Of a stretch of DNA of 64,000 nt, positions 1 to 56,592 are shown piece by piece. This DNA is from Bryobacterales bacterium. GTDB lineage: Bacteria; Acidobacteriota; Terriglobia; Bryobacterales; Bryobacteraceae. The notes under the pieces are model-generated. The model searched no databases and was not told where the DNA came from. It worked only from the letters and a program-made list of their open reading frames with translations. How positions within the stretch are numbered: position 1 is the stretch's first letter; every line of letters begins with the position of its first letter. Both the position numbers and the translations under genes were made by a program. Location: assembly GCA_963716685.1 (NCBI GenBank), contig CAVQTR010000003.1, positions 3,225,500 through 3,289,499 of the forward strand. Direction: 5' to 3'.

Positions 1-393
1 GGAAGAGACCTCCAGCGCCGCGGACGAGCTCAGTCCCGCTCCATCCGGCACCGTGCTGTGGATCAGCAGCTTTCGGCCCTCGATGGGAAAGCCCGCGCGC
101 GCGAGTTGCTGCGCCACGCCGGCCACGTAATCGGTCCAGTGTTTTACCGGTTTCAGGTCCGCGATGGCGGCCACGGGCCAGTCCCATGTCTCGTTCTGCG
201 CTTCCGAACGAACATGCATATGGCCGTCAGCGGAGGGCGCGGAAGCCACCCAGGTCGCCAGATCGAGCGCAATCGGCAAAACAAAGCCAAAATTGTAGTC
301 GGTGTGCTCACCGATCAGGTTGACGCGGCCCGGCGCCCGGAATACGCGTAGTTCCGGCGCCGGGCCGAACTGCTTCTCAAACGCTTCCCTCAT
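1..393 (-). CDS. galK: galactokinase, N-terminal portion (gene continues past the window start)
   Basis: Minus-strand translation from the ATG at 393-391 reads MREAFEKQFGPAPELRVFRAPGRVNLIGEHTDYN..., the GHMP-kinase galactokinase N-terminal signature (PGRVNLIGEHTDYN). The reading frame runs off the window. The ATG overlaps the TGA of the upstream small ORF. Confidence 0.75.
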   Translation of the reverse strand, partial: MREAFEKQFGPAPELRVFRAPGRVNLIGEHTDYNFGFVLPIALDLATWVASAPSADGHMHVRSEAQNETWDWPVAAIADLKPVKHWTDYVAGVAQQLARAGFPIEGRKLLIHSTVPDGAGLSSSAALEVSS

Positions 394-584
394 GCGCGGC
401 GGCGAGCGCGAACAGCCAGCAGCAGCAGAAACGCTCCAAATGCAAGCATCACCAGACCGGCCCAGAGATTGATATTTAGAGGCGTAAGCGGCGCCCGTGC
501 CTCCGGTTCCAGCACGCCCAGCGCAACCAGAATGATGCCTGCGAGCGTAAAGAAGAGTCCCGAGGGAAGACGCAGATCTAGCAC
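390..584 (-). CDS. small two-helix membrane protein (DUF3311-like) coupled to the solute symporter
   Basis: 64-aa ORF, almost entirely hydrophobic with an RARRRA tail. It lies 4 nt after the stop of the SSS symporter, a typical small partner of Na+/solute symporters. Confidence 0.45.
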   Translation of the reverse strand: MLDLRLPSGLFFTLAGIILVALGVLEPEARAPLTPLNINLWAGLVMLAFGAFLLLLAVRARRRA

Positions 585-588
585 GGGG

Positions 589-2241
589 TCACCGGAACCA
601 TACGTTCAATAGTATGAGCACGACGCAGACCAGCCCGGCAAGCGGAATCGGTCTTCGATACCACGCAACGGTTCCGTCATGCGGGATTTTCGTGAGCCCG
701 TAGACCAGACCGGTCAGTTCCGAATGAGGCCGGGGCTTCGTCGCGAGGCTCACCACAATCGTGACCAGAAAACAGGTACTCCACGCGAAGATGGCAATCC
801 AAAAATTCTGGGCCATGGTCGAGGGAAACGAATAGAGCACCGTCCCGAGCCAGCCGCCTTTGCCTTCCGCGAGCGTCAGCCCGTGAACCAGAGCCGCAGC
901 AGTGGTTCCGCTCAGCAGCCCGGTAAAGGCCGCGTGCCCCGTGGTCCGCTTCCAGAACATGCCCAGCAGGAAGGTCGCAAACAGGGGGGCGTTCACGAAC
1001 CCGAACACCAGCTGCAGCAGGTCCATGATGTTGTTGTAGTGCTGGGCCAGGTAGGCGGTCATGATCGAGAGCGCGGTCCCCACCAGCGTGGTTACGCGAG
1101 CTACCGAGAGGTAATGCCGGTCGCTTTCACCCGGCCGGATGTAGCCCTGATAGATGTCGTACGTAAATACGGTGTTAAAGGCGGTCACATTGCCCGCCAT
1201 GCCGGACATAAAGGATGCCATGAGCGCTGTCAGCCCGATTCCCAGCATCCCGGCGGGATAAAACTGCGACATAAGGGTAGTCAGCACCTTGTCGTAATCC
1301 GGGCCGCCCGTCTTCATCGGCATCGCGTACCCGGTGCCCATCTGTGCCAGTGCAACCGCGGCCAGGCCCGGCACGATCACGATGAACGGCATAATCATCT
1401 TGGGGAACGCGGCCATCAGCGGCGTCCGGCGCGCGGCCGCCATGGAATCCGCGGCCATAGCGCGCTGCACCACCAGGAAATCAGTGCACCAATATCCGAA
1501 GGACAGCACAAACCCGAGTCCGGCAATCAGTCCAAAAGCCTCCACTCCCATCGGATTCATGCCGGAATTTCCCAGATACTGCCAGCTGTGCGTCATCACC
1601 GGAGCCAGATGGCTCTTCATTCCGCTCCAGCCGCCCGCGCGGTAAACGGCCATCATGGCCAGCGGCGAAAAGCCCAGCACGATCAGGAAAAACTGAAGCA
1701 CTTCGTTGTAGATGGCGCTCGTCAGCCCGCCCAGATAGGTATAAACCAGAACGATGGTTGCGGACAGAATGACGGAAGCGGTGAAACTCCAGCCCAGCAC
1801 CGCTTCGAACAAAATGCCCAGCGCATACATCGAGATGCCCGACGAGAAAATCGTCATGATGGCGAAGGTAATCGCGTTGAGCCCGCGCGTCTTTTCGTCG
1901 AACCGGAGCAGCAGGTATTCCGGCACGGAACGCGCGCGGCTGCCGTAGTAGAACGGCATCATGAACACTCCGATGAAGACCATCGCAGGCACCGCGCCAA
2001 CCCAGTAAAAGTGGGAGGTCATGATGCCGTATTTAGCGCCGGATGCACACATGCCGATCACTTCCTGCGCGCCGAGATTGGCCGCCAGAAACGCCAGGCT
2101 GGTGATCCACACCGGCATGGACCGCCCGCTCGTGAGAAACTCACCGCTGGACGTGGCCTGCCGGCGGAGCCGCCAGCCGATGCCGATTACGAAGAGGAAA
2201 TACAGGGCAAGGATGGAGTAATCAACAAGAGCAAGTTTCAA
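589..2241 (-). CDS. sodium:solute symporter (SSS family), likely sugar (galactose) uptake given the adjacent galK
   Basis: 550-aa ORF with about 13 predicted TM helices. The N-terminus (YFLFVIGIGW..R.........EFLTSGRS) is characteristic of SSS-family transporters. The start codon is TTG. Confidence 0.85.
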   Translation of the reverse strand: MKLALVDYSILALYFLFVIGIGWRLRRQATSSGEFLTSGRSMPVWITSLAFLAANLGAQEVIGMCASGAKYGIMTSHFYWVGAVPAMVFIGVFMMPFYYGSRARSVPEYLLLRFDEKTRGLNAITFAIMTIFSSGISMYALGILFEAVLGWSFTASVILSATIVLVYTYLGGLTSAIYNEVLQFFLIVLGFSPLAMMAVYRAGGWSGMKSHLAPVMTHSWQYLGNSGMNPMGVEAFGLIAGLGFVLSFGYWCTDFLVVQRAMAADSMAAARRTPLMAAFPKMIMPFIVIVPGLAAVALAQMGTGYAMPMKTGGPDYDKVLTTLMSQFYPAGMLGIGLTALMASFMSGMAGNVTAFNTVFTYDIYQGYIRPGESDRHYLSVARVTTLVGTALSIMTAYLAQHYNNIMDLLQLVFGFVNAPLFATFLLGMFWKRTTGHAAFTGLLSGTTAAALVHGLTLAEGKGGWLGTVLYSFPSTMAQNFWIAIFAWSTCFLVTIVVSLATKPRPHSELTGLVYGLTKIPHDGTVAWYRRPIPLAGLVCVVLILLNVWFR

Positions 2242-2282
2242 CTGTCAAACTATATATCATCGGGTTGATTTCCCGCCCGAGT

Positions 2283-4784
2283 TCACTGCGCTCCATCGGC
2301 CGCCGTGCGCACGGTCAGATAACGCCCGTCGCTGATCACCGTTTCGAGGCCTGATCGGTCGGTCCGCACGGTCCAGACATGCCGTTCCTCCAGGTTTTCC
2401 ACAGTCTGCCGGTGCGGATGCCCGTAGGAATTTTCAAAGCCGGCCGAGATCATCGCGAACGCCGGGTGCACCGCGTCGAGGAAGCCCGGCGTACTCGAAC
2501 TCCGGCTGCCGTGATGCCCCACTTTCAACACATCGGCACGTCGCACCAGATCGCCCGCCAGCAGTTCCTGCTCCACCTGCTTTTCCATGTCCCCGGTCAG
2601 CAGAAACGAGTGGCGGCCATACGCTAAACGAAGCACCAGCGAATCGTTGTTCTTCGGCGAATTCCCCGTCACGTAATCCGCAGAAGGAGCCAGCACCTGC
2701 ACGCTCGCCCCGCCGAAGGGAAACGGGCCTCCCCGCACCAGCGGCTTGACCTTTACTCCTCGGGCGCTCGCTTCCTCACGAAGCCGGTCCCAGGACGGAT
2801 ACGGCGGGGTCGCTCCGGTCCACAATTCCCGCACATCGAAATCCCGCAGGATTGCCGCAAGCCCGCCAATGTGATCTTCATGCGCGTGCGAAAGCGCCAC
2901 CACATCGATGTGCCGGATGGAGCGTGTCCACAGGTAAGGAGCCACCACGTCCTCCCCGACGTCCAGCCGGGTGTTCGCCGATTTTCCAAAACTCGGGATT
3001 CCCCCGCCATCCACCAGCATGATGCGGCCGTCCGGAAACGCGACCAGCAGGCTGTCGCCCTGCCCCACATCGATGGCCGTCACCTCCAGAGCGCGCGGCT
3101 GAATCACCGGCGGGAACGGATGAACCACCAGCACCACCAGCAACAGCAGCACTGCGGCTGCCGTGACCACCCGAACCGATACCCAGCGGAAGCGGATTGC
3201 CGCGGCCACCAGCGCGGCCGTAAATGCCAGTGCGAGCCACAGCGGCGGGTCCGGAATACGCCAGTTGGGCTCCCAGCGCGCATGCCACGCAACCGCTATC
3301 CGCGAAAGGTCCAGCAGCCACGCCGCAAGACCCGCGAGCAGCGTCGAGTTCGTAAAAACCGCAAGGAAGCCGACCGGCACCACGACACCCAGCAACGGCA
3401 CCGCAAACGCATTGGCCGAAAGACCCGAAAACGAGATGCGATGAAAGTAGATAGCCATCGGCAGCGCCAGCCCAATCTGAATCACCGCCGACGTCAGCAA
3501 CAGGTCGTAAAGATAGAATCCGAGGCGCATGGGCACCGTCACCGCCCACCTCGCCATCCGCGAGGGAAGCCGGGGCAGGAGCAGTTCCACGGTGTCCACC
3601 ACCAGCCGTAGTTCCAGACGGAAGTGGGCAACTCGCGGCGGCATCCGCAGGTCGCTTGTCTTGTCGCTCAGCTTGGCCAAACCAGCGGTGAGCGGCCCCG
3701 AAGTTTTCTCGATGATGGGAACCACCATCGCGGCGATCAGCGCCACCGAAAGAAAGGAAAGCTGGAAACCCGGATCAAACATCTGCTCGGGGTCGGCAAG
3801 GATAAAGATCAGCGCCACCGCCGCGATCACGTTGAGCATGCGGCCCTGACGGTAGAAGCATCGCCCGATCGCAAACAGAGTCATTCCCGCCGCTGAGCGC
3901 ACCACTGGCGCCTGCCAGCCCGTAACAAACGCGTATAGCCACCCCGCAATCAGGGTTGCCAAGGTGGCCCAGTCGCGCGGCACGAAGCAGATGCGCAGCA
4001 GGAACAGCAGGAAAGCCGCCAGTACCGCCACGTGACTGCCGGAGATCACCAGCGCATGAAAGGTCCCGGTGGATCGAAAGTCTTCCGTCCACACGCGCTC
4101 CATGCCGCTGGTCTCCCCAATCAGAACCGCCTGCATCATCGCGATGTTGTACGCGCTCGGCTGATAGAGTTCCTCGATGCGCGCGAGCGCGGCCATGCGA
4201 ATGGCGTAAATGGCCGCCCAAAATCGCGATCCGCATCGCCCAGGCAAAACCGTTGCCTGAGCGCCGGCCGGGGTCGAAGCGGTCCAGTAGATGTACTGTC
4301 GCGCCAGAAAATGCGTGTAGTCGAAAGCTCCGGGATTCCGGTAGTTGTGTGGAACGCGCGTTTTCGCCGGAAACTCCACCAGCTGCCCGTAACGAAACGC
4401 CGGGGCCGATTCACCCTCGCGCAGATACCAGTTCACCCGCGCGCGCGCCTGCGGCGCCATTTCCAGAGTGAACTGTTCGCGCTCGCGCGCCAGCACCGCC
4501 GGCTCCACCACGCAGCCCGAAAGCAGTACCTGTTCACCGTCGACTGTGTCGAGTTCCGGGGCCGCTTCAGGACGGTGCGCCAGCATCACCAAAGCCCCGC
4601 AGGAGAACATCGCAAGCAGCACACAGGCGCCTGCCAGACGCTGTGAAAATCGCAGCGCGACGAGGCCGAGCAGCGCAAACGCGGCCGTCACGCACCACAG
4701 CTCGCCCGACTGAAACGGCGCAACACGCGGCAGCAGAATGCCGCACGCCACAGCAGCCAAAGGCGCGATCAGCGGTTCCCGCAC
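2283..4784 (-). CDS. comEC: DNA internalization competence protein ComEC/Rec2 (polytopic membrane domain plus C-terminal metallo-beta-lactamase fold)
   Basis: 833-aa ORF. It has an N-terminal multi-TM region with a DUF4131/competence domain, and a C-terminal HxHxDH-type MBL motif (SHAHEDHIGG ... VGHHGS). Confidence 0.8.
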   Translation of the reverse strand: MREPLIAPLAAVACGILLPRVAPFQSGELWCVTAAFALLGLVALRFSQRLAGACVLLAMFSCGALVMLAHRPEAAPELDTVDGEQVLLSGCVVEPAVLAREREQFTLEMAPQARARVNWYLREGESAPAFRYGQLVEFPAKTRVPHNYRNPGAFDYTHFLARQYIYWTASTPAGAQATVLPGRCGSRFWAAIYAIRMAALARIEELYQPSAYNIAMMQAVLIGETSGMERVWTEDFRSTGTFHALVISGSHVAVLAAFLLFLLRICFVPRDWATLATLIAGWLYAFVTGWQAPVVRSAAGMTLFAIGRCFYRQGRMLNVIAAVALIFILADPEQMFDPGFQLSFLSVALIAAMVVPIIEKTSGPLTAGLAKLSDKTSDLRMPPRVAHFRLELRLVVDTVELLLPRLPSRMARWAVTVPMRLGFYLYDLLLTSAVIQIGLALPMAIYFHRISFSGLSANAFAVPLLGVVVPVGFLAVFTNSTLLAGLAAWLLDLSRIAVAWHARWEPNWRIPDPPLWLALAFTAALVAAAIRFRWVSVRVVTAAAVLLLLVVLVVHPFPPVIQPRALEVTAIDVGQGDSLLVAFPDGRIMLVDGGGIPSFGKSANTRLDVGEDVVAPYLWTRSIRHIDVVALSHAHEDHIGGLAAILRDFDVRELWTGATPPYPSWDRLREEASARGVKVKPLVRGGPFPFGGASVQVLAPSADYVTGNSPKNNDSLVLRLAYGRHSFLLTGDMEKQVEQELLAGDLVRRADVLKVGHHGSRSSSTPGFLDAVHPAFAMISAGFENSYGHPHRQTVENLEERHVWTVRTDRSGLETVISDGRYLTVRTAADGAQ

Positions 4785-5660: not shown

Positions 5661-7554
5661 TCCCGGGCATCCCATTCACCAGAGCAAACTCCGCCCGCAG
5701 CATCTCCGCGCCATCTATCAGAAACAAAAACCCGCTGCCCGCTTTCTCCGCTGTCAGCGCGTGCCACGCCCCGGCATCGAAGCCGGCGGGCAGCCCGGCA
5801 TTCTGCCAGGTACTGATTCCGTTCACAACGGCATGAACCCTTAGCAGACGCTGTGCCGCATCCAGCCACATGCTCACGTTATTATTGCGGTCGTCGTAAC
5901 ACGCCACCAATCCAACCCGGCCCTCGGAGCCGCCGCCCTTACGAACCTCCGCCCCAACGGTGTACGACTGCAGATTTGGGTTACCGCGATAAAGCGCCTG
6001 TGTTCCAGCGCCACGACTCTCCACCGCACGGGCATCCACAATCTGCCACAACCCCGGCGCGTCGCTCGCCCCTCCCTCCGCGGCGTCCCCATAGGGTCTG
6101 CCCCACCCGAAGGCATCGTCTATTAGGGTCACATTCCGAAACTGCGCGCCCGCGCCAGTCGAAAAGACGCCGATCTGTCCGCCTTCCAAGGCCGCGCTTC
6201 TTTGTTCGCGCACCACGCCATCGAGCACGAAGCTGAACGACTGCTCGGCCGACTTCCTCACCTCCAGATGATGCGCTGCCGCAAAATCGAACCCAATCGG
6301 CATCGCGGTCCAGTGAATCCCCTGATCGGCGCCCGCTACCGTCGCTCCCGTCCCCAGCACGCCAGCTGATCCATCCAGGAAGACCTCGACATGGTTCGCC
6401 TCATCGCGGTACAGCGCGTAAACTCCCGAGCGTCCCGTCCTGCCTGCCGCCACATCGGCGGATACGGTGTACGCCACCGATTCCGAACCATTGCGAAACG
6501 CGGTACCGCCAACGGGCCCGCTGTACACGTTGCCACTGCTGAGGTATGCCATCGCGCCCGCCGCCCGCGCGCCCTGTTTCGAATCTCCCCAGCCCGAAGC
6601 GGCCCCGGCATCGCCCGACGGCTGCTCCAGCCCAACCTGCGGATCCATGGGATAGCCCAGCAGCGGGACGCCCTCCGAATCCCACGCGATCTTCTGCATG
6701 CGAATGCTGCGGCATGCCCACTGCGCGCAGTTCAGCCGGTCATACGCGTGGTAAAGACTCCACGATTCCGTTCCGTCCGGCGAATTGATGAACACCACGC
6801 TTCCAGGACCATATACGTGCGAGTGTCCATCCAGCACCGGGCCATGTTTCTTCCAGGCACCTGGATTCAGCAGATCGCCCGAAGCATTGATCAGTACGCC
6901 CACGGCATAGTCCTTGGTCGTCCAGCTGGCGCTCGCCGAATACGTTAAATAGGTGGATCCCGCATGCACAAAACCCACCGGACCTTCCTGAATGGCGCCC
7001 GTGCGCGTTTCCCAGCTCTCCACCGGCGAACTGATCTGAACTGTGTCGCTGGCAACATGCACCGGGTCGCTCATCCGCGCGATGCAAAGGTTCTGGGGAA
7101 GTCTCCCGAATTCATCCCCGGTGCATGACCACGTCAGGTAGAGCTGGTTGTCGGCACCGAAGAACACGTCCGGATCGATGGCCCAGTTCCCCGTAGAATC
7201 CACAATCTGCCCCGCCAGTTTGTAAGGATCGAGCGGGTCGGACCCGCCCTCGAGCACAAACAGGCGATGCCGCGCGTCACTGTGGTGGTCGGCTGCGAAG
7301 TAGAGGTACCAGCGTCCGCCGATAAGGTGCAGCTCGGGAGCCCAGACATTCGCCAGCCCCCCGGATCCCGGCCGGGCGTTCCAAACCGGAATCGGCGCCT
7401 GCGAACTCAGCCCCGAAAGCGTGGGGGACCGGCGCAGATAAATACGGTCGGAGTCCGCGTCCGAATAATAGTAATTCCCTTGCCAACGAATCACATATGG
7501 ATCCTGGCTCGGGAACAGTGGGTTGGTAAATGTCTGAGCCACTACCACCCGCAA
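5605..7554 (-). CDS. glycoside hydrolase family 43 (beta-xylosidase/arabinofuranosidase-like) with two C-terminal jelly-roll lectin-like domains
   Basis: N-terminal DPYVIRWQGNYYY ... WAPELHLIGGRWYLYF ... is the GH43 five-bladed propeller signature. Two roughly 150-aa repeats follow (YTVSADV.., YTVGAEV..). The listed start at 7554 is a TTG. An in-frame signal-peptide-like extension lies upstream (see findings). Confidence 0.8.
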   Translation of the reverse strand: MRVVVAQTFTNPLFPSQDPYVIRWQGNYYYSDADSDRIYLRRSPTLSGLSSQAPIPVWNARPGSGGLANVWAPELHLIGGRWYLYFAADHHSDARHRLFVLEGGSDPLDPYKLAGQIVDSTGNWAIDPDVFFGADNQLYLTWSCTGDEFGRLPQNLCIARMSDPVHVASDTVQISSPVESWETRTGAIQEGPVGFVHAGSTYLTYSASASWTTKDYAVGVLINASGDLLNPGAWKKHGPVLDGHSHVYGPGSVVFINSPDGTESWSLYHAYDRLNCAQWACRSIRMQKIAWDSEGVPLLGYPMDPQVGLEQPSGDAGAASGWGDSKQGARAAGAMAYLSSGNVYSGPVGGTAFRNGSESVAYTVSADVAAGRTGRSGVYALYRDEANHVEVFLDGSAGVLGTGATVAGADQGIHWTAMPIGFDFAAAHHLEVRKSAEQSFSFVLDGVVREQRSAALEGGQIGVFSTGAGAQFRNVTLIDDAFGWGRPYGDAAEGGASDAPGLWQIVDARAVESRGAGTQALYRGNPNLQSYTVGAEVRKGGGSEGRVGLVACYDDRNNNVSMWLDAAQRLLRVHAVVNGISTWQNAGLPAGFDAGAWHALTAEKAGSGFLFLIDGAEMLRAEFALVNGMPGITTDGSPAQFREFAVTQP

Positions 7555-50367: not shown

Positions 50368-51279
50368 TCAGAGCTGGAGCGTGCCGGTGAGCGAGCGGAC
50401 ATCGGAAATGCGCTGCCGGGCCAGGAACGCAGCAAGTTCCTGAGCGATGCGGCGCGGCGCGGCGGGATCCCAAAACGTGGCGGTGCCGACTTCGACGGCG
50501 GTGGCGCCGGCGATGAGGAACTCGGCGGCATCTTCGCCGGAGGCGATGCCGCCCATGCCGATGACGGGAATGCGGACGGCTTTGGCGGCCTGATAGACCA
50601 TCCGCAAAGCGATGGGCTTGATGGCCGGGCCGGAAAGTCCGCCAAAGCCGGCGCCGATGCGGGGTTTGCGCGTGCGGGCGTCAACCGCGAGCGAGATAAA
50701 CGTGTTGACGAGCGAAACGGCGTCGGCGCCGGACTGCTCGGCGGCCAGCGCGAGCGGTTCGATGCGGGCGACGTTGGGCGAGAGCTTCACGATGACCGGG
50801 CGTCGCGCAATCACTTTTACCGACGCGACGAGACCGGAAAGCGCGTCGGCGTCGTTTGAAAAGAAGATGCCGCCGTGTTTCGTATTCGGGCAGGACACGT
50901 TGAGTTCATAGCCGGCGAGACCTTCGGCATCTTCAAGGACGCGTACAACTTCCACATAGTCCTCGGCGGCGTAGCCGAAGACGTTGGCGAAAACGGGCGT
51001 GCCGACGGAGCGCAGCGCGGGCAGTTTTTCGCGGACGAAAGCGCGGACGCCGATGTTCTGGAGGCCGACGGAATTGATCATGCCCTGTTCGGCTTCCCAG
51101 AGGCGCGGCGCGGGATTGCCCTCAATGGGATCCTTCGACAGGCCTTTGACCACGATGCCGCCGAGCGCGCGGAGGTTGACGAGATCCTGAAATTCCAGGC
51201 CGTACCCGAATGTGCCGGACGCCGCGATTACCGGGTTCGCGAGCGGGATGCCACAAATGGAGACGGCCAGGCCATGCAT
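50368..51279 (-). CDS. pyrD: dihydroorotate dehydrogenase (class 1, catalytic subunit)
   Basis: Motifs NPVIAASGTFGYG, ...GGIVVKG..., ...VIGMGGI.... 303 aa. It is separated from pyrRBC by about 8 kb. Confidence 0.85.
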   Translation of the reverse strand: MHGLAVSICGIPLANPVIAASGTFGYGLEFQDLVNLRALGGIVVKGLSKDPIEGNPAPRLWEAEQGMINSVGLQNIGVRAFVREKLPALRSVGTPVFANVFGYAAEDYVEVVRVLEDAEGLAGYELNVSCPNTKHGGIFFSNDADALSGLVASVKVIARRPVIVKLSPNVARIEPLALAAEQSGADAVSLVNTFISLAVDARTRKPRIGAGFGGLSGPAIKPIALRMVYQAAKAVRIPVIGMGGIASGEDAAEFLIAGATAVEVGTATFWDPAAPRRIAQELAAFLARQRISDVRSLTGTLQL

Positions 51280-51281
51280 TC

Positions 51282-52112
51282 CTCAGGCAGTGTAGCAGGC
51301 AAGATCGGTAAAGGCTTCGGAACGGCGATCGGCACTCAGGACGACTTCCACCGACATCTCCTTATGATTACGGACGACGGTGAGGGTGACGGATTTGGCA
51401 GCGTTGGGCGGGAGGATTTTCATGGTGATGTCGCCAGGGCTGCGAATGGCATCGCCGCTGACGCGGGTGATTACGTCGCCGGCTTTCAGACCGGCCCGCT
51501 CGGCGGCGGAATTTTTCGAAACGAACCGAATCAGGACTCCTTCGTGAACGCCGAAGTAATCGGCAAGCTGGGAATTGAGGGCTTCGCTTTCAATTCCGAG
51601 GCGGGGGAAGCGAGCGGAATCTCCGGCATATTGGGCATATTGGGCATGGCAGGCATCACTGGCATCGCCGGCAGGGCGGAGAGATTCGGCATGGTGAAAG
51701 AGAAGCCACCGCGTCCGGAGCGGGCTTCGATAGTGACTGGAAGCGTTTGGAGCGAGCCGTTGCGGCTGATCTGGAGGGAGACTTTGCGGCCGGACGGCGT
51801 TTCCGAGACCATTCGGATGAACTGGTTGATGCCTTCAATGCGCTGGCCGTTGTAATCGAGAACGACGTCGCCCTCTTTCAGTCCGGCTTTGGCAGCCGGG
51901 CTGTTTTCATCGACATACTTGATCTCGACACCACGCTCTTCCTTTAGTTTTAAGGCTTTGGCCCGATCGGAATCGATTTCGACGACGGCGACGCCGAGGT
52001 AACTGCCGGGCTGCGCGACGAGGCTGGTGACGGAACGCGCACGCGGCGCGGGGGCCGGCGCCTGCGCCATCAGGGCAAACAGCGCTGTGCATTGTGCAAG
52101 ATTGTGCATCAT
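51282..52112 (-). pseudogene. periplasmic PDZ-domain protein (two PDZ domains, MPxMP repeat linker), one frameshift near 51530-51580
   Basis: First PDZ in ORF 51531-52112 (GVEIKYVDENSPAAKAGLKEGDVVLDYNGQRI). Second PDZ in another frame (GVLIRFVSKNSAAERAGLKAGDVITRVSGDAI). Linker PAMPVMPAMPNMPNMPEIP. Confidence 0.55.
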
Positions 52113-52120
52113 TGTGCCTA
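52091..52120. repeat. three tandem 10-bp direct repeats ATTGTGCANN overlapping the start of the PDZ gene
   Basis: attgtgcaag attgtgcatc attgtgccta. The same 10-bp unit recurs at 53883-53920. Confidence 0.7.
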
Positions 52121-52975
52121 TTTCTTCCTTATATAGATGAAGCCGCCATTGGCGGAAATGCGCAGCAGCGGGCCTCCGCCATTGATGGCTCCTTCGGCGA
52201 GAACGGAGCTGCGGACCGATCTTACGCGGATGGCGGAAAAATCCGAAACGATGGACCGGCGGTCCGCCGAACCGGTATTTTGCGCCCGGATGCTGACATG
52301 GAGATTAGACGCAAGGTGGACGGTTATGTCACCGGCAGCGGTGGAGAGCATGGAATCCATGAGCATGAGGCCGGGGAAGAAGGTGGCGAAGATGCTGCCG
52401 CCGCCGGTCCACGCGCGGACGGGGCCGGTGGATTTCTGAATCACGATGTCGCCGCCGGCGGTTTGGAAGACAGCGCCGGAGTGAAGGGTGTCGGCACGGA
52501 TGGCGCCGCCGCCGGAGGAGCAGTGGATTTCGCCGCCGATGGAGCCAAGGGACGTGGGTCCGCCGGCGGAGTGGATTTCGACGCTGCCGCCGATGCGGCC
52601 GAGGGCGATGCGGCCGGCGGCCTGGGCGACGAGCGAGCCATTGAGATCGGCGACATCGAGATCGCCGCCGGGCGTATGGATGTTCAGGCGTTCAAGGGTG
52701 CGGGGCGCGGTGACTTCGAGCGAGTCGGCAGCAGGGGCCTGGAGAATGGTGAGATTTCCCTGACGGGTGAAAGAGATACGGGAATCACTGCCCGCGCGCC
52801 AGGTAAGCCGGGAGGAAGAGGTGCCTCGGAATTTGATGTTGCCGGGACAGAAGATCTGGAGGGCGCCGGCAGGGTCGATGGGTTCAGAGGACTGAGGGGA
52901 AAAGGCGTACAGGGGGGCAGTGCAGGCCAGGGCGAGAAGGGGCCAACGGAACTTAGAAAGTGCCGACGGACGCAT
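52118..52975 (-). CDS. DUF4097-type beta-helix repeat protein (putative adhesin family often encoded with anti-sigma factors)
   Basis: Signal peptide MRPSALSKFRWPLLALACTAPLYA. Repeated G(G/D)(D/S)I.. beta-strand motifs (TPGGDLDVAD, RIGGSVEIHS, SIGGEIHCSS, TAGGDIVIQK, AAGDITVHLAS). Confidence 0.55.
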   Translation of the reverse strand: MRPSALSKFRWPLLALACTAPLYAFSPQSSEPIDPAGALQIFCPGNIKFRGTSSSRLTWRAGSDSRISFTRQGNLTILQAPAADSLEVTAPRTLERLNIHTPGGDLDVADLNGSLVAQAAGRIALGRIGGSVEIHSAGGPTSLGSIGGEIHCSSGGGAIRADTLHSGAVFQTAGGDIVIQKSTGPVRAWTGGGSIFATFFPGLMLMDSMLSTAAGDITVHLASNLHVSIRAQNTGSADRRSIVSDFSAIRVRSVRSSVLAEGAINGGGPLLRISANGGFIYIRKK

Positions 52976-53852
52976 TCATCTCCTGCAACGCGCGCTGCAG
53001 GCGAACGCGAACATTGCTGTTGTCTTCCTTGCGAACCAGATTCTGGAGGACGCCGACCATGGAATCGTCGTGATGGGATACGAGCAAATCAATGACCTGG
53101 ATGCGGACGCCGGGGTTGGAATCGTTGAGGAGAACCTGGCTGAGGGCCTTGCGGACTTCGGCATTCGAGGCGAACTGACGGAGGCCGTCGAGGGCTTTGA
53201 GGCGGACGCCGGGATTGGGATCGTGCTCGACCGCATCGAGGAGGGCGCCGCGGACGTCTTCGGAGGACGCCATGTTTTTGAGAAGATCGACGGATTCGAC
53301 GCGAACGCCGGGATTGCTTTCCTCGCGGACGGCGGTGAGGAGGAGCTGGCGAATTTTCTGATCGTCGACGCCGCCTGAGACGACGCGGCGGTGAACGTCA
53401 TCGACCGAGATGCGGACGCGGCCGGAGGAATCGGGCTGAACGGAGCGGACGGTGGAGACGATGCCGCTTTCGAGCGCGCCGGAGGGGAGGAGGTCCGGGG
53501 TTAGGCGGGCGCCGAAATAGCCGATGGCGACGAGCGCGAGAGCGCCGGCGGGAATGCGGAGGGAGATGTGGGCATCCTGGAAAATCCGCTGCCAGAACGG
53601 CAGGCGGGGTTCGGGGAGGGATTCGCCGGCGCGGATCCGCGTGGCCAGGATCTGGCGGCATTCGACGAGCAGGTCGAGCGACGGCTCAAGTTCGGATTCG
53701 TTGAGGGCGGTGGAGAACATACGGAATTGGTCACATGAGGACTGGCAGGCGAGGCAAGCGGCGCAGTGGGCTTCGATGAGTTCTTCGGTTTCCGGCGGCA
53801 GTTCGCCATAGAAATAAAGGGGAACGGACTTCCGGACCTGGTCGCAGGTCAT
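52953..53852 (-). CDS. anti-sigma factor (N-terminal zinc-finger anti-sigma domain, predicted TM helix, C-terminal HEAT-like repeats)
   Basis: Start at the ATG at 53852 (MTCDQVRKSVPLYFYGELPPETEELIEAHCAACLACQ, zf-HC2-like). TM segment ALALVAIGYF. Repeats of ..NPGVR...D.L. The listed longer ORF begins inside the upstream tandem repeat and is not believable. Confidence 0.6.
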   Translation of the reverse strand: MTCDQVRKSVPLYFYGELPPETEELIEAHCAACLACQSSCDQFRMFSTALNESELEPSLDLLVECRQILATRIRAGESLPEPRLPFWQRIFQDAHISLRIPAGALALVAIGYFGARLTPDLLPSGALESGIVSTVRSVQPDSSGRVRISVDDVHRRVVSGGVDDQKIRQLLLTAVREESNPGVRVESVDLLKNMASSEDVRGALLDAVEHDPNPGVRLKALDGLRQFASNAEVRKALSQVLLNDSNPGVRIQVIDLLVSHHDDSMVGVLQNLVRKEDNSNVRVRLQRALQEMNASVGTF

Positions 53853-53882
53853 GACCGGGCACTCCTTTCCCGGGAGGCCGGC

Positions 53883-53920
53883 GTTGTGCAGGATTGTGCA
53901 GGATTGTGCAGAATTGTGCA
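53883..53920. repeat. four tandem 10-bp direct repeats (G/A)ATTGTGCAG in the 70-bp spacer between the ECF sigma and anti-sigma genes
   Basis: gttgtgcagg attgtgcagg attgtgcaga attgtgcaca. Same unit as at 52091-52120. Confidence 0.7.
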
Positions 53921-53923
53921 CAT

Positions 53924-54553
53924 TTAGGCAAGATCTCCCAGGACTGTGCGCATTTTTTGGGTGGCGCGGAACAGGCAGTTTTTGGCGGCTTCTTCGCTGG
54001 TGCCCAGCACTTCCCCGATATTCCGGAGGCGCAGGCCTTGAAAATGGCGCAATTCGAAGACAACGCGTTCGCGCGGGGTGAGGGCAGCGAGGGCGGCTTC
54101 AATGCGGACGCCGAGCTGGCGGCTAAACATGGTGCGCTCGGGATCGGCATGAGCGGCTTCTTCTTCCACGCGTTCCATGCGGTCGACAGGACCCTCTCCG
54201 GTTTCGATGACGGAGGATTCCTCCCGGCGCACTTTTCGTTTGCGCAGATGGTCGAGGCAGATATTGGTCACTATGCGATAGAGCCAGGTGTGAAAGCTGC
54301 AATCGAAGCGGAACGAGTGGAGGTTGCGGTAGACGCGGAGAAATGCCTCCTGATAGACGTCGCGGGCGTCTTCGGGGGACCGGAGGAGGTTGAGCGCGAT
54401 CCGGAGAACGCTCTGGTCGTAGGTGCGGACGAGGCGCTCGAACGCCTCCTGATCGCCGTTTTGGGCAGCGCGGATGAGGTCGCTTTCGACGGAGGCGGTT
54501 TTTTCGATGGCGGGCGCGAGGCGGATGGTGAGGGTTCCGGCGGCGTCGAGCAT
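53924..54553 (-). CDS. RNA polymerase ECF-type sigma-70 factor
   Basis: Start at the ATG at 54553 (MLDAAG..). Region 2 (YDQSVLRIALNLLRSPEDARDVYQEAFLRVY) and region 4 (LTPRERVVFELRHFQGLRLRNIGEVLGTSEEAAKNCLFRA). Confidence 0.8.
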   Translation of the reverse strand: MLDAAGTLTIRLAPAIEKTASVESDLIRAAQNGDQEAFERLVRTYDQSVLRIALNLLRSPEDARDVYQEAFLRVYRNLHSFRFDCSFHTWLYRIVTNICLDHLRKRKVRREESSVIETGEGPVDRMERVEEEAAHADPERTMFSRQLGVRIEAALAALTPRERVVFELRHFQGLRLRNIGEVLGTSEEAAKNCLFRATQKMRTVLGDLA

Positions 54554-54837
54554 CGTTACGGGTTTTGGACGGATTGAAACCGGAAACGTCACGCGCTTTT
54601 CCGGCCGAAGCACAGCCGCGGAACGAAGCCAATTGTGACAGGAATGGCGGCGCGGCGCATGAGGTTTTCAGTTCGAGGATACAACGGCGGGCGGAAGTCG
54701 AGTAGATAAGTCGTTGATTCCGTTGAGTGATATGAGAGTTACCGGGCGTGGCGAGGGGCATCGGCGCGGGGAGGTGAAACGGGAAGCGGGCGGCCCGCAC
54801 TACTCACCGACGCCCAAGGGGGCGCAGAGGAGATTCC

Positions 54838-55419
54838 ATGCAAGCTACGCAGACGCAACAGTCTTTCGCGATCACTCCGGCACGGATGGTTGCCCTGGTC
54901 GACTCGGTTTTGGAACGATCACCGACACTTCCGCTGCCTCCGCCCCGGCGGTTCGACAGCCTGATCCGCCAGGCCATTGCCCAAGTGGTGGGGCAGGCGG
55001 CGGAGCCGTGGCATTTGTTCGCGGCGGGGAGCCAGCCCAGGCTGAACCCGCAGCCACTGCCGCCGGGCGTCCGGTTTTTCCACGCAGTGGTGGATGTGAT
55101 GGTGAGCCGGGCGGAGATGCTGGACGAGTTTTCCCGCGCGATCACGGAAGAGGAGCGAGGCATTATCATCGTCGGCGGATATGTGAGTGAGTTTTCCGAT
55201 GACTTCTGCGGGAACGGGTTCCGACTGGTTTGGCCGTATCCGGGTCCGCCGCCGCCGTGGTTTACGAGTGAGCTGGACGGAGGCGATCTGCTGGTGATGG
55301 CGGGCCAGCTTTCGCGTTCCGCCGGCGAGGCGTTCGGCGTGGGATTGCGGGACGCGCTTTCGGGCGCCGCGAACCAGTTTGCGCGAACGGGATTTGCGCG
55401 CCTGCAGAACGCGGGGTAG
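54838..55419 (+). CDS. hypothetical protein
   Basis: ATG preceded by GGAGA 7 nt upstream. 193 aa of ordinary composition. The overlapping 220-aa minus-strand ORF is Pro/Ser-rich, antisense-like junk. Confidence 0.45.
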   Translation: MQATQTQQSFAITPARMVALVDSVLERSPTLPLPPPRRFDSLIRQAIAQVVGQAAEPWHLFAAGSQPRLNPQPLPPGVRFFHAVVDVMVSRAEMLDEFSRAITEEERGIIIVGGYVSEFSDDFCGNGFRLVWPYPGPPPPWFTSELDGGDLLVMAGQLSRSAGEAFGVGLRDALSGAANQFARTGFARLQNAG

Positions 55420-55486
55420 TTTGGGGCGGTTTCTTTTGGGGAAGGAAGGGCGCGTTTCTTCCCCACGGACGAGCTGGATGAGTTCG

Positions 55487-55750
55487 TTATTTGCCGGGCT
55501 GGAGGAACTTCTTCGTCGCTTCGGACGGCGTCAGGATTTCGCCATCGATCAGCATGCGTCCGGTATAGCCGCCTCCCGCTTCAAACTCCCAGGCCACGTC
55601 GTGGCCTTCGCGGGCGAGCTTTGCCCATTTGGTGCGCTTGGCCGAATTCTGTTCCAGCCAGAAATTGCCGTCCGCTGTGGCTAAAGAGCGGAGTCTGGCG
55701 TGGCCGGTGCGGTTGGTCCACGTTTTCATGTCGTGGAGGTTGGGTGGCAC
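55487..55750 (-). CDS. small hypothetical protein
   Basis: 87-aa ORF (..MKTWTNRTGHARLRSLATADGNFWLEQNSAKRTKWAKLAREGHDVAWEFEAGGGYTGRMLIDGEIL..) directly upstream of arsM on the same strand. No recognised domain. Confidence 0.35.
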   Translation of the reverse strand: MPPNLHDMKTWTNRTGHARLRSLATADGNFWLEQNSAKRTKWAKLAREGHDVAWEFEAGGGYTGRMLIDGEILTPSEATKKFLQPGK

Positions 55751-56592
55751 TACTGACAGAGTAACGGCTGGGTGGGGCAGCAGCCCGCAGGCTTCGTGGC
55801 GCGAATGAAGGCGCTGAAGAACCTGCCTTCGACAGCCGGAGCCATGGCGTCGACGTCAACGCCCTGCCCGCTAAGAAAGGTTCTTGCATCTTCGATGCTG
55901 TAAACCCGGGTCGGTTCGATTTCGACAGCATCAAAACCCGCTCCGGCCAGTTTGGCGACATACTCATCCTGGCCGAGCGCCCCGGCAATGCAGCCGACCC
56001 ACAGCAGCATGTTCCTGCGCACTTCGGCAGGGACTTCGCCGCGTGTGACAACATCCGACACGGCGAAACGCCCACCCGGTTTCAGGACGCGGAACGCCTC
56101 ACGGAGCACGCGATCTTTATCGGCGGACAGGTTAATCACGCAATTGCTGATGACCACATCGACCGAGTTGTCCGGCAGCGGGATCTGCTCGATCTCCCCT
56201 TTCAGGAATTCGACATTCTCCACCCCGGCTTTGCGCTGGTTCTCGCGGGCAAGGGCCAGCATTTCATCGGTCATATCGAGGCCCCAGGCTTTGCCAGCCG
56301 GGCCGACACGGCGGGCTGACAGCAACACGTCGATGCCGCCGCCGGAGCCGAGATCGAGCACGGTTTCGCCAGCTTTCAATTCGGCGAGGGCCGTGGGGTT
56401 GCCACAGCCGAGTGACGCCAGCACCGCTGCTTCCGGGACCGTGCCGGTTTGCGTGGCATCGTACAGGTTTGCGGTGATCGGGTCACAGCAGTTATCGAGA
56501 GCGGCCCCCGCGCCACAGCAGGAGCTGCCGCCCGTGTTGACACGCAGCGCCGCCTGACCGTATTTCTCTTTGACGATGTCTTTGAGTTCCAT
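55750..56592 (-). CDS. arsM: arsenite S-adenosylmethionine methyltransferase
   Basis: Start at the internal ATG at 56592 (MELKDIVKEKYGQAALRV...). Conserved Cys pairs (SSCCG...CC), SAM motif VLDLGSGGGID, ..VISNCVINL... 280 aa. Confidence 0.8.
   Translation of the reverse strand: MELKDIVKEKYGQAALRVNTGGSSCCGAGAALDNCCDPITANLYDATQTGTVPEAAVLASLGCGNPTALAELKAGETVLDLGSGGGIDVLLSARRVGPAGKAWGLDMTDEMLALARENQRKAGVENVEFLKGEIEQIPLPDNSVDVVISNCVINLSADKDRVLREAFRVLKPGGRFAVSDVVTRGEVPAEVRRNMLLWVGCIAGALGQDEYVAKLAGAGFDAVEIEPTRVYSIEDARTFLSGQGVDVDAMAPAVEGRFFSAFIRATKPAGCCPTQPLLCQ

Follow-up and report, generated by a model that had tools for sequence, protein, structure and literature searches.

Two short arrays of the heptamer TGCACAA, repeated with a 10-bp period, lie within the operon of an extracytoplasmic function (ECF) sigma factor in a Bryobacterales bacterium; the source is a 64,000-nt stretch of contig CAVQTR010000003.1, here called the window, and coordinates are positions within it. 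Both arrays are confirmed to be real, nonrandom, and phased to the helical turn of DNA, and they very probably belong to a repeat class spread across the lineage. The explanation put forward here, tentatively and with support and doubt almost in balance, is that the arrays are helical-turn-phased DNA sites for an oligomeric helix-turn-helix (HTH) protein, the best candidate being a family that resembles the phage small terminase subunit (TerS) and carries a SEC-C motif.

In a direct sequence read, the plus strand is CTGTGCA TTGTGCAAGA TTGTGCATCA TTGTGCC at 52086-52118 and TTGTGCAGGA TTGTGCAGGA TTGTGCAGAA TTGTGCA at 53884-53920. Since every local gene runs on the minus strand, the preferable notation for the unit is TGCACAA-NNN, the units of the window being mostly TGCACAAT-NN. 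The repeats are as follows:

53884..53920, minus strand: array B, four exact TGCACAA units with a 10-bp period, reading TGCACAATTC TGCACAATCC TGCACAATCC TGCACAACG.

52092..52118, minus strand: array A, reading GGCACAATGA TGCACAATCT TGCACAA, with one near unit (one mismatch, TTGTGCC on the plus strand) and two exact units.

52086-52092, minus strand: near copy TGCACAG (CTGTGCA on the plus strand), overlapping array A after its last unit.

Tandem Repeats Finder reported a period of 10 at both sites, with 2.8 copies (score 42) in array A and 3.7 copies (score 67) in array B. A search for TTGTGCA-N3-TTGTGCA, allowing up to two mismatches, returned seven matches in the window against an expectation of 0.34; all seven fall in the two arrays and none in the other 62 kb, and none of 100 shuffled windows reached seven. 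The arrays also account for six of the eight TTGTGCA heptamers in the window. The arrays are not an assembly artefact, since the same sequence is present in an independent Logan assembly from the same type of sample (L116, 99.9% identical), which contains array A and three units of array B. The tandem 10-bp direct repeats that a preliminary description of this DNA had reported at two sites are borne out by the sequence read, the repeat finder, the two-unit search, and the shuffles; of the three copies that it counted in array A, two are exact and the third differs by one mismatch.

Arrays of this kind are found well beyond the window. A scan of one genome per GTDB species (596 Gb) for three exact units, which specify 21 bases, returned at least 115 loci where chance predicts fewer than one match. 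Among the matches listed, 40 come from 13 metagenome-assembled genomes (MAGs) of Bryobacteraceae, Bryobacterales, or Terriglobia, each MAG contributing from several to at least 10 loci. Arrays of the Bryobacterales class contain two to five TGCACAA heptamers, mostly three. Again among the matches listed, consecutive heptamers are spaced by 10 bp in 115 of 132 pairs, and identical internal spacers occur in 5 of 41 Bryobacterales arrays versus 34 of 75 arrays from other taxa, the latter resembling ordinary slippage minisatellites. The 60-nt flanks on either side of 45 arrays share no common motif (<0.3 bit per position), indicating that the arrays are not copies of a mobile element; a repeat of the MITE (miniature inverted-repeat transposable element) or REP (repetitive extragenic palindromic) type was rejected for these flanks and for lack of a conserved body or terminal inverted repeats.

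The genes next to the arrays are varied and often have housekeeping functions, including pgk, acpP, folD, xseB/ispA, purH, selA, ligD, a HAD phosphatase gene, and an H+-PPase gene; other neighbors are two ECF sigma genes and the 3′ ends of dnaG and dksA. The idea that ECF sigma genes are a recurrent neighbor was rejected, as they adjoin 2 of ~40 other loci. About 38 of 47 arrays are noncoding, and their distances to start codons range from 0 to ~500 nt in mixed orientation. Array density is evidently low, since ~76 kb of Bryobacterales DNA retrieved without reference to arrays (ftsY neighborhoods, whose upstream synteny is not conserved) contained none. Arrays persist at orthologous or paralogous places, with spacers and even positions shifting, in the locus pairs L001/L004, L037/L072, L044/L071, and L113/L115; for instance, those of L001 and L004 lie upstream of the same HAD gene. 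This persistence is suggestive only, because the pattern search found both members of each pair.

The arrays combine a fixed 7-nt core with free 3-nt spacers, which gives them the look of a phased protein-binding site. An inverted near-unit (TTGTGCA, at most one mismatch) is located within 45 nt on the 5′ side of 12 of 45 arrays (~27%) and on the 3′ side of none of the 45, compared with a background rate of 4% of windows. In several arrays, the inverted unit and the first direct unit overlap on the palindromic TGCA as TTGTGCACAA; array B is built likewise, with A-T-G just before its first unit completing the near-palindrome ATGTGCACAAT. Such an overlap cannot form an RNA hairpin but is usual for a dimer site. 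There is moderate confidence that the arrays act as protein-binding sites in DNA.

Arrays have also been imposed on coding DNA without a change in length, namely in the NAD-binding (Rossmann) domain of gpsA in two genomes and in a ParB linker. Three units make 30 nt, or 10 codons, and translate as AQ-x-CT-x-x-HN, which explains the peptides MHNSAQSCTILHN and MMHNLAQCT produced by the open reading frame (ORF) caller in the window. The gpsA arrays, of three units each, are at L037 3345-3371 and L072 2815-2841 (reverse orientation), where the strand that GpsA usually has, G-H-E-V-x-L-W-x-x-D, is replaced by YAQVCTTLHN or CAQVCTIVHN, its length unchanged.

A further set of coding arrays points to a candidate binding partner. 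Four array loci (L002, L003, L079, and L082) fall in the linker of genes for ~200-aa HTH_23/Sf6-terminase-like plus SEC-C proteins, in which a disordered linker joins an N-terminal TerS-like HTH and helical oligomerization domain to a C-terminal SEC-C zinc motif. A database search returned 2020 clusters of this family, and those that have names are all from Bryobacteraceae and called "SEC-C metal-binding domain-containing protein." The DNA coding for the linker in family genes contains two arrays, one of 3(+1) units and one of 2 units. In L250-255, whose DNA was fetched through a protein search and hence independently of the array pattern, the linker reads GAT GCA CAA nnn TGC ACA Ann nTG CAC AAC and ATG CAC AAT nnT GCA CAA. 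GCA, CAA, and ACA codons should be rare at such high GC. The corresponding peptide, DAQxCTTxHNDAQ...MHNxAQ, is present in 111 of the best 120 of the 2020 clusters (~92%). At the x of HNxAQ, just before AQ, 126 of 127 residues are ones with an NNT codon, even though 24% of the linker consists of E, Q, K, and M. Directly after CT, residues with an ANN codon are found without exception, and the following position is taken by A or by one of V, L, and M (NTG). The variable residues thus follow the codon constraints of a 10-nt period, so that the conserved entity is the nucleic acid array and not the peptide, with the reservation that the family sequences are related, so that raw probabilities of the codon pattern overstate independence.

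The N-terminal part of these proteins resembles TerS in both sequence and fold. Residues ~3-107 match PHROGs terminase small subunit families (E = 8e-8 and 5e-6), and a PDB profile search retrieved the NV1 and PaP3 TerS structures (7joq and 6w7t; E = 5e-4 and 1.4e-3). In the AlphaFold model, the predicted local distance difference test (pLDDT) score is ~90 over residues 1-100 and <50 in the linker (130-169), and every one of the top Foldseek matches is a small terminase or a TerS-like phage protein (2ao9, 7joq, 3hef, 6w7t, and 4dzj; probability 0.96-1.0). PADLOC matches to the family are limited to the SEC-C tail. Outside the lineage, a Chloroflexia mobile element (L006) encoding an integrase and a primase-like protein has a four- to five-unit TGCACAATAT array ~130 nt upstream of a gene for an HTH-only homologue of 79-99 aa, which matches the family hidden Markov model (E = 1e-10), passes the PF20901 cut-off, and has the same HRNT-x-NW helix. 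Taken by itself, the proposal that the TerS-like/SEC-C family is the binding partner of the arrays is possible but still doubtful.

The operon that hosts the window arrays comprises four genes, all on the minus strand:

53924..54613, minus strand: ECF sigma gene, given as the longest ORF (homologues suggest ~209 aa), with Pfam Sigma70_r2/r4 and 75% identity to the sigma factor of L251.

52953..53852, minus strand: anti-sigma gene, 299 aa, true start MTCDQ, with Pfam zf-HC2 and HEAT repeats.

52118..52975, minus strand: DUF4097-like beta-helix protein gene, 285 aa, with no Pfam match of its own and DUF4097 proteins as homologues.

51286..52112, minus strand: two-PDZ-domain protein gene, with starts at 52112/52109 and a frameshift near 51604.

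Three further features occupy the sigma/anti-sigma junction:

53854..53928 (borders approximate), minus strand: ~75-nt lineage-specific insertion holding array B, from nucleotide alignment, blastn, and gene calls in relatives.

53849..53923, minus strand: putative 24-codon mini-ORF (MCTILHNPAQSCTTPASRERSARS), read from the sequence only, starting right after the sigma stop.

53854..53882, minus strand: predicted RNA hairpin with CCUCC pairing to the anti-sigma Shine-Dalgarno sequence GGAG (101-nt fold of -33.3 kcal/mol; z = -2.2, weak).

Array B makes up most of the 70-bp spacer between the sigma and anti-sigma genes, and the four copies attributed to this spacer in the preliminary description are all exact. 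Its further view that such a spacer is unusual agrees with the relatives, in which the two genes overlap by 4 nt (ATGA). Array A does not abut the PDZ start codon, as had been stated, and instead overlaps the start codons and the signal-peptide codons (MMHNLAQCTA); nor do the arrays bracket the whole module, since array B lies inside it, between the sigma and anti-sigma genes, and array A between the DUF4097 and PDZ genes. The ORF caller had been noted to extend both downstream genes into the repeats; the true start of the anti-sigma protein is MTCDQ, and the peptides produced by the caller are translated array.

Comparison with related operons indicates that both arrays are recent, lineage-specific acquisitions and not part of a conserved module, because orthologous operons are without them. 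Homologues of the DUF4097 protein, all at ≤60% identity, are encoded on contigs L118/119, L120, L121/122, and L123/124 in operons of the same order (sigma, anti-sigma with HEAT repeats, DUF4097, and PDZ); these have no array, and the sigma stop and anti-sigma start overlap as ATGA. An orthologous operon in MAG JBKQIF (L250-252; sigma 75% and anti-sigma 48% identical) also has neither array and keeps the ATGA overlap, though this MAG has arrays at other loci, bringing the related operons without both arrays to five. A metagenome scan for relatives of the DUF4097 protein found one distant locus only. In the window, the insertion keeps apart the TAA stop of the sigma gene (53924-53926) and the ATG of the anti-sigma gene (53850-53852), where relatives read GC-ATGA; the inserted sequence is TAA-ATG-TGC-ACA...TCA-TGA, the putative mini-ORF ending in a TGA that overlaps the anti-sigma ATG. 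At array A, nucleotide alignment with relatives shows remodeled signal-peptide codons with a net change of -9 nt.

Scans of the 51-56 kb region found no promoter-like (sigma-70-like) site and only chance-level terminator-like sites, and an Rfam scan in e-value mode of 49-58 kb and four array loci gave no match at arrays. A promoter built from the repeats themselves was rejected, as TGCACA-N16-CACAAT scores 8/12 and has no conserved partner motif; a sigma-54 -24/-12 reading was rejected by inspection, the spacing being off by one.

Some features of the locus stand apart from the arrays. The annotated PDZ ORF (51531-52112) covers the first PDZ domain only, the frameshift sitting inside a PMP-rich 9-nt repeat at which the Logan assembly is identical; the second PDZ domain, 78% identical to L119, can be read as far as ~51286 in a different frame. 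The frameshift could be a real pseudogene, a real frameshift, or an assembly error common to both assemblies. Compared with L118, L120, and L121, the window lacks a Phosphodiest (PF01663) gene between the PDZ gene and pyrD (51268-51280), and its DUF4097 beta-helix is shorter by ~53 internal residues (52390-52405). In MAG JBKQIF, a TerS-like/SEC-C gene lies 2.3 kb from the operon orthologue (L250-252, 6001-6606 versus 1-3689), a proximity that is probably coincidental, given that no such gene lies upstream in the window.

Arrays form part of only two composite repeats, both genome-specific. One is an ~80-bp multi-copy element (...GAAGAAATTAAAGGACTTATTTGTTTTTTCACGCCCGGGCG...) bracketed by TGCACAA arrays upstream of xseB and folD in two related MAGs, bog_375 and SPRUCE 69, which could be a small RNA or a leader. 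Its copies, none with an Rfam match, are:

L027 4895-4984: ~80-bp element.

L028 1876-1942: ~80-bp element.

L033 7069-7163 and 7348-7444: ~80-bp element, two copies.

L091 529-595 and 2051-2135: ~80-bp element, two copies.

An Acido-Lenti-1 RNA (RF01687, 42.8 bits) is at L027 6525-6569, ~1.5 kb from the arrays. The other composite repeat is found upstream of pgk in L089 (630-878, reverse orientation) as three tandem ~110-bp units, each with an array, and the unit recurs at a second locus of the same genome (L013 5396-5533). In addition, one MAG has two copies, 95% identical, of an 800-bp segment (L044 3200-3999 and L071 2060-2858) that encodes a 191-aa protein without a Pfam hit and whose end coincides exactly with a complex of TGCACAA units in direct and inverted orientation, the adjoining 2.2 kb being only 66% identical; a transposon end was rejected as an explanation, since no transposase or Pfam domains were found.

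Arrays in Enterobacterales and on viral contigs were set aside as a different, cos-proximal element of P88/P2-like Peduoviridae, whose TerS is not homologous to the family (hhalign probability 1.8%). These prophages, whose TerS is of the gpM type, carry TGCACAATAGTGCACAAATTTGCACAA beside the portal gene, and linear phage records have it at their ends; the element is present in ~1150 of 5426 E. coli genomes. Its positions are:

L125 3001-3068: Peduoviridae element.

L256 7001-7064: Peduoviridae element.

NC_049391 37055-37099: Peduoviridae element.

NC_049343 133-168: Peduoviridae element.

In the explanation preferred here, the window arrays, very probably local copies of a cis-element class spanning Bryobacteraceae and Bryobacterales, would be read as double-stranded DNA by an oligomeric HTH protein that places one HTH per helical turn along one face of the DNA. 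The arrays in the linker-coding DNA of the TerS-like/SEC-C family would then parallel the pac sites located in or at phage terS genes. Array B arrived in the ~75-nt insertion, which broke the ancestral ATGA coupling of the sigma and anti-sigma genes, and array A was written into the PDZ signal-peptide codons. Bound protein may serve as a roadblock or architectural element that impedes or modulates read-through from the sigma gene into the anti-sigma, DUF4097, and PDZ genes, so that expression of the latter three could be modulated independently of the sigma gene, with array A acting in the same way at the PDZ start. The mini-ORF, as a relay ORF, together with the hairpin sequestering the Shine-Dalgarno sequence, may keep translational coupling across the insertion. 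An extension of this scheme, regarded as unlikely, is that Bryobacteraceae have domesticated a phage TerS-like ring protein with SEC-C as a chromosomal DNA-binding factor with scattered TGCACAA sites. The arrays in the family's own ORF would then be an intragenic autoregulatory or pac-like site, others would have been written into coding sequences, and new arrays would rewire local expression or could mark chromosomal DNA for packaging or transfer.

Several points weigh against the reading of the arrays as sites for the TerS-like/SEC-C protein. The link between arrays and family is circumstantial, and any effect on the ECF operon is purely inferential. No family member is encoded within the 64-kb window, and no TerL (large terminase subunit), portal, or capsid genes are found near family genes, the L250-255 neighborhoods consisting of ordinary chromosomal genes. 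The structural matches are modest, with Foldseek E-values of 4e-3 to 4e-2 and TM-scores of 0.38-0.48, and those TerS DNA-binding domains that have been studied bind weakly and rather nonspecifically (PMC4737164). In addition, divergent, tandem, and convergent intergenic regions hold arrays at ~16:19:6 (gene calls checked with Pfam), close to expectation from region length alone; with this ratio and six arrays between convergent genes, there is no clear promoter bias. Orientation in tandem regions is weakly biased (~14 sense versus 5 antisense).

The model of the preliminary description, in which the arrays are phased operators of an OmpR/PhoB-like or other regulator dedicated to the ECF module (or, in a variant, an internal anti-sigma promoter), draws on the 7+3 direct repeats with a 10-bp period that is exact at both sites, and on the presence of two arrays within 1.8 kb of one operon, the remaining 62 kb having none. 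Its broader notion, that the arrays are phased and bind protein, is supported by the conserved core, free spacers, and period. A response-regulator-type site is not supported: neither the operon nor its immediate surroundings encode a response regulator, and no evidence connects the arrays with an OmpR-type protein. A role specific to the ECF module is contradicted by the motif at no fewer than 40 unrelated loci in at least 13 Bryobacterales MAGs, where arrays flank unrelated housekeeping genes, lie between convergent genes, or fall in coding regions (gpsA, parB, and TerS-like genes), and by the homologous operons without arrays (L118-L124 and L250-252). Spread of the motif through genomes and its absence from homologous loci, which the preliminary description had itself named as evidence against a specific role, were both observed. 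The region 51000-56000 has no sigma-70-like promoter, and no conserved -10-like motif stands at a fixed distance from arrays. The dedicated-operator model is thus largely refuted by the comparative data and is very improbable.

Two other explanations bear on whether the arrays act as DNA at all. If they acted instead as RNA, transcribed (UGCACAA-N3)n would be bound by an RNA-binding protein or the ribosome, tuning translation or mRNA stability of the anti-sigma and PDZ genes. Both window arrays are indeed sense and at or just before start codons, ~31 of 44 arrays are in the sense of the downstream gene or in a co-oriented 3′ untranslated region, TerS-like genes invariably carry theirs on the coding strand, the array strand is rich in C/A and poor in T over the 20 nt that follow, the SEC-C tail is a zinc knuckle-like motif, and an RNA-level role has been proposed for the TAACTGA repeats of Beggiatoaceae (PMC4679880). 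Such a role is nevertheless rated improbable: five or six arrays are antisense to both Pfam-confirmed neighbors and six lie between convergent genes, the palindrome TTGTGCACAA and the 5′-side inverted unit fit a DNA dimer site, the strict 10-nt period equals the DNA helical repeat, no Rfam family matches, and fold z-scores are weak (-2.2 and +0.5). Alternatively, the class could be functionless or selfish, spread by mutation or gene conversion (e.g., ectopic, from TerS-like genes), with the window arrays as neutral passengers. This would accord with the fit of array placement to intergenic length, the orthologous operons and ~76 kb of unselected DNA without arrays, the fact that arrays in some genomes form part of larger units, duplicated or in tandem (L027/28/33/91 and L089), and the unchanged-length gpsA patch, which resembles gene conversion. 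However, invariant cores with randomized spacers are the reverse of what slippage produces in minisatellites, ~92% of a gene family of great diversity keeps arrays under nucleotide-level constraint, the ftsY-HAD and other intergenic regions keep arrays while positions turn over, the inverted unit has a consistent polarity, and there are no conserved flanks or terminal repeats, so that inert passengers, too, make a poor prospect.

If the pairing of arrays and TerS-like/SEC-C proteins is true, a phage DNA-recognition module (TerS ring plus pac-like repeats) would have been re-used genome-wide by a free-living soil lineage, with sites powerful enough to impose themselves on coding sequence in gpsA, in parB, and in the linker of the protein itself. 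The pairing would also provide a testable handle on regulation and DNA organization in Acidobacteriota, where experimental knowledge is almost nil, and would show how site acquisition uncouples a tightly coupled sigma/anti-sigma pair. Even if inert, the arrays would be a clear example of a repeat class specific to one lineage, with an origin that calls for explanation. A literature search found no account of TGCACAA arrays or of the TerS-like/SEC-C protein family.

Direct repeats of the 7+3 type with a 10-bp period are typical of OmpR/TorR/CpxR, Spo0A, and CtsR sites. A heptad direct-repeat operator is reported for CtsR (10.1101/2025.09.04.674265), and direct-repeat arrays are reported for ArcA and PhoP. 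The TGCACAA arrays share with the operators of CtsR, Spo0A, OmpR, TorR, ArcA, and PhoP a ~7-nt core with a ~3-nt spacer, a variable unit number, and head-to-tail binding, which is here proposed. In contrast, operators of the CtsR/Spo0A/OmpR type are located in promoters of defined regulons with identified regulators, whereas TGCACAA arrays follow no regulon theme, can be found inside genes or at 3′ ends, and are linked to no regulator of those families. The arrays depart from each of the systems compared here in at least one defining feature.

The closest known mechanism is the recognition of phage pac/cos repeats by TerS, as in boxA/B/C of SPP1/SF6. TerS rings show adjacent HTH motifs about one B-DNA turn apart, and in SPP1 the pac site is made up of direct repeats that extend across the beginning of terS (PMC4737164). 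The present arrays are similar to pac/cosB in being short direct repeats whose 10-bp period fits one HTH per turn of a TerS ring, and in having a candidate partner whose N-terminal domain matches TerS by sequence profile and fold, recognition itself being proposed. On location within or next to a TerS-like gene, the picture is mixed: arrays are so placed in the family genes (DNA of L002, L003, L079, L082, and L250-255) and in Chloroflexia L006, but the two window arrays have no family gene within 64 kb. They differ from pac/cosB in that TGCACAA sites occupy dozens of chromosomal loci as opposed to one site per phage genome, and in that the candidate protein has a SEC-C zinc motif in place of the TerL-binding C-terminus; no TerL, portal, or capsid genes lie nearby, and neither packaging nor cleavage is implied.

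As a phenomenon, the nearest known parallel is the TAACTGA heptamer repeats dispersed in Beggiatoaceae and Cyanobacteria (MacGregor 2015, PMC4679880). Both classes are lineage-restricted and consist of many intergenic sets of a few copies of one heptamer (two to six for TAACTGA), both precede genes that have no functional theme and include essential ones, and both occur occasionally inside ORFs. Units of the TAACTGA class abut one another (7-nt period) and in most cases sit within a few nucleotides ahead of a start codon, where they overlap the position of the ribosome-binding site (PMC4679880), whereas TGCACAA units have a period of 10 bp, free spacers, distances of 0 to ~500 nt to start codons, and mixed orientation. 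Finally, the TAACTGA repeats have no known binding partner (PMC4679880), whereas TGCACAA arrays are carried by the genes of their candidate partner family.

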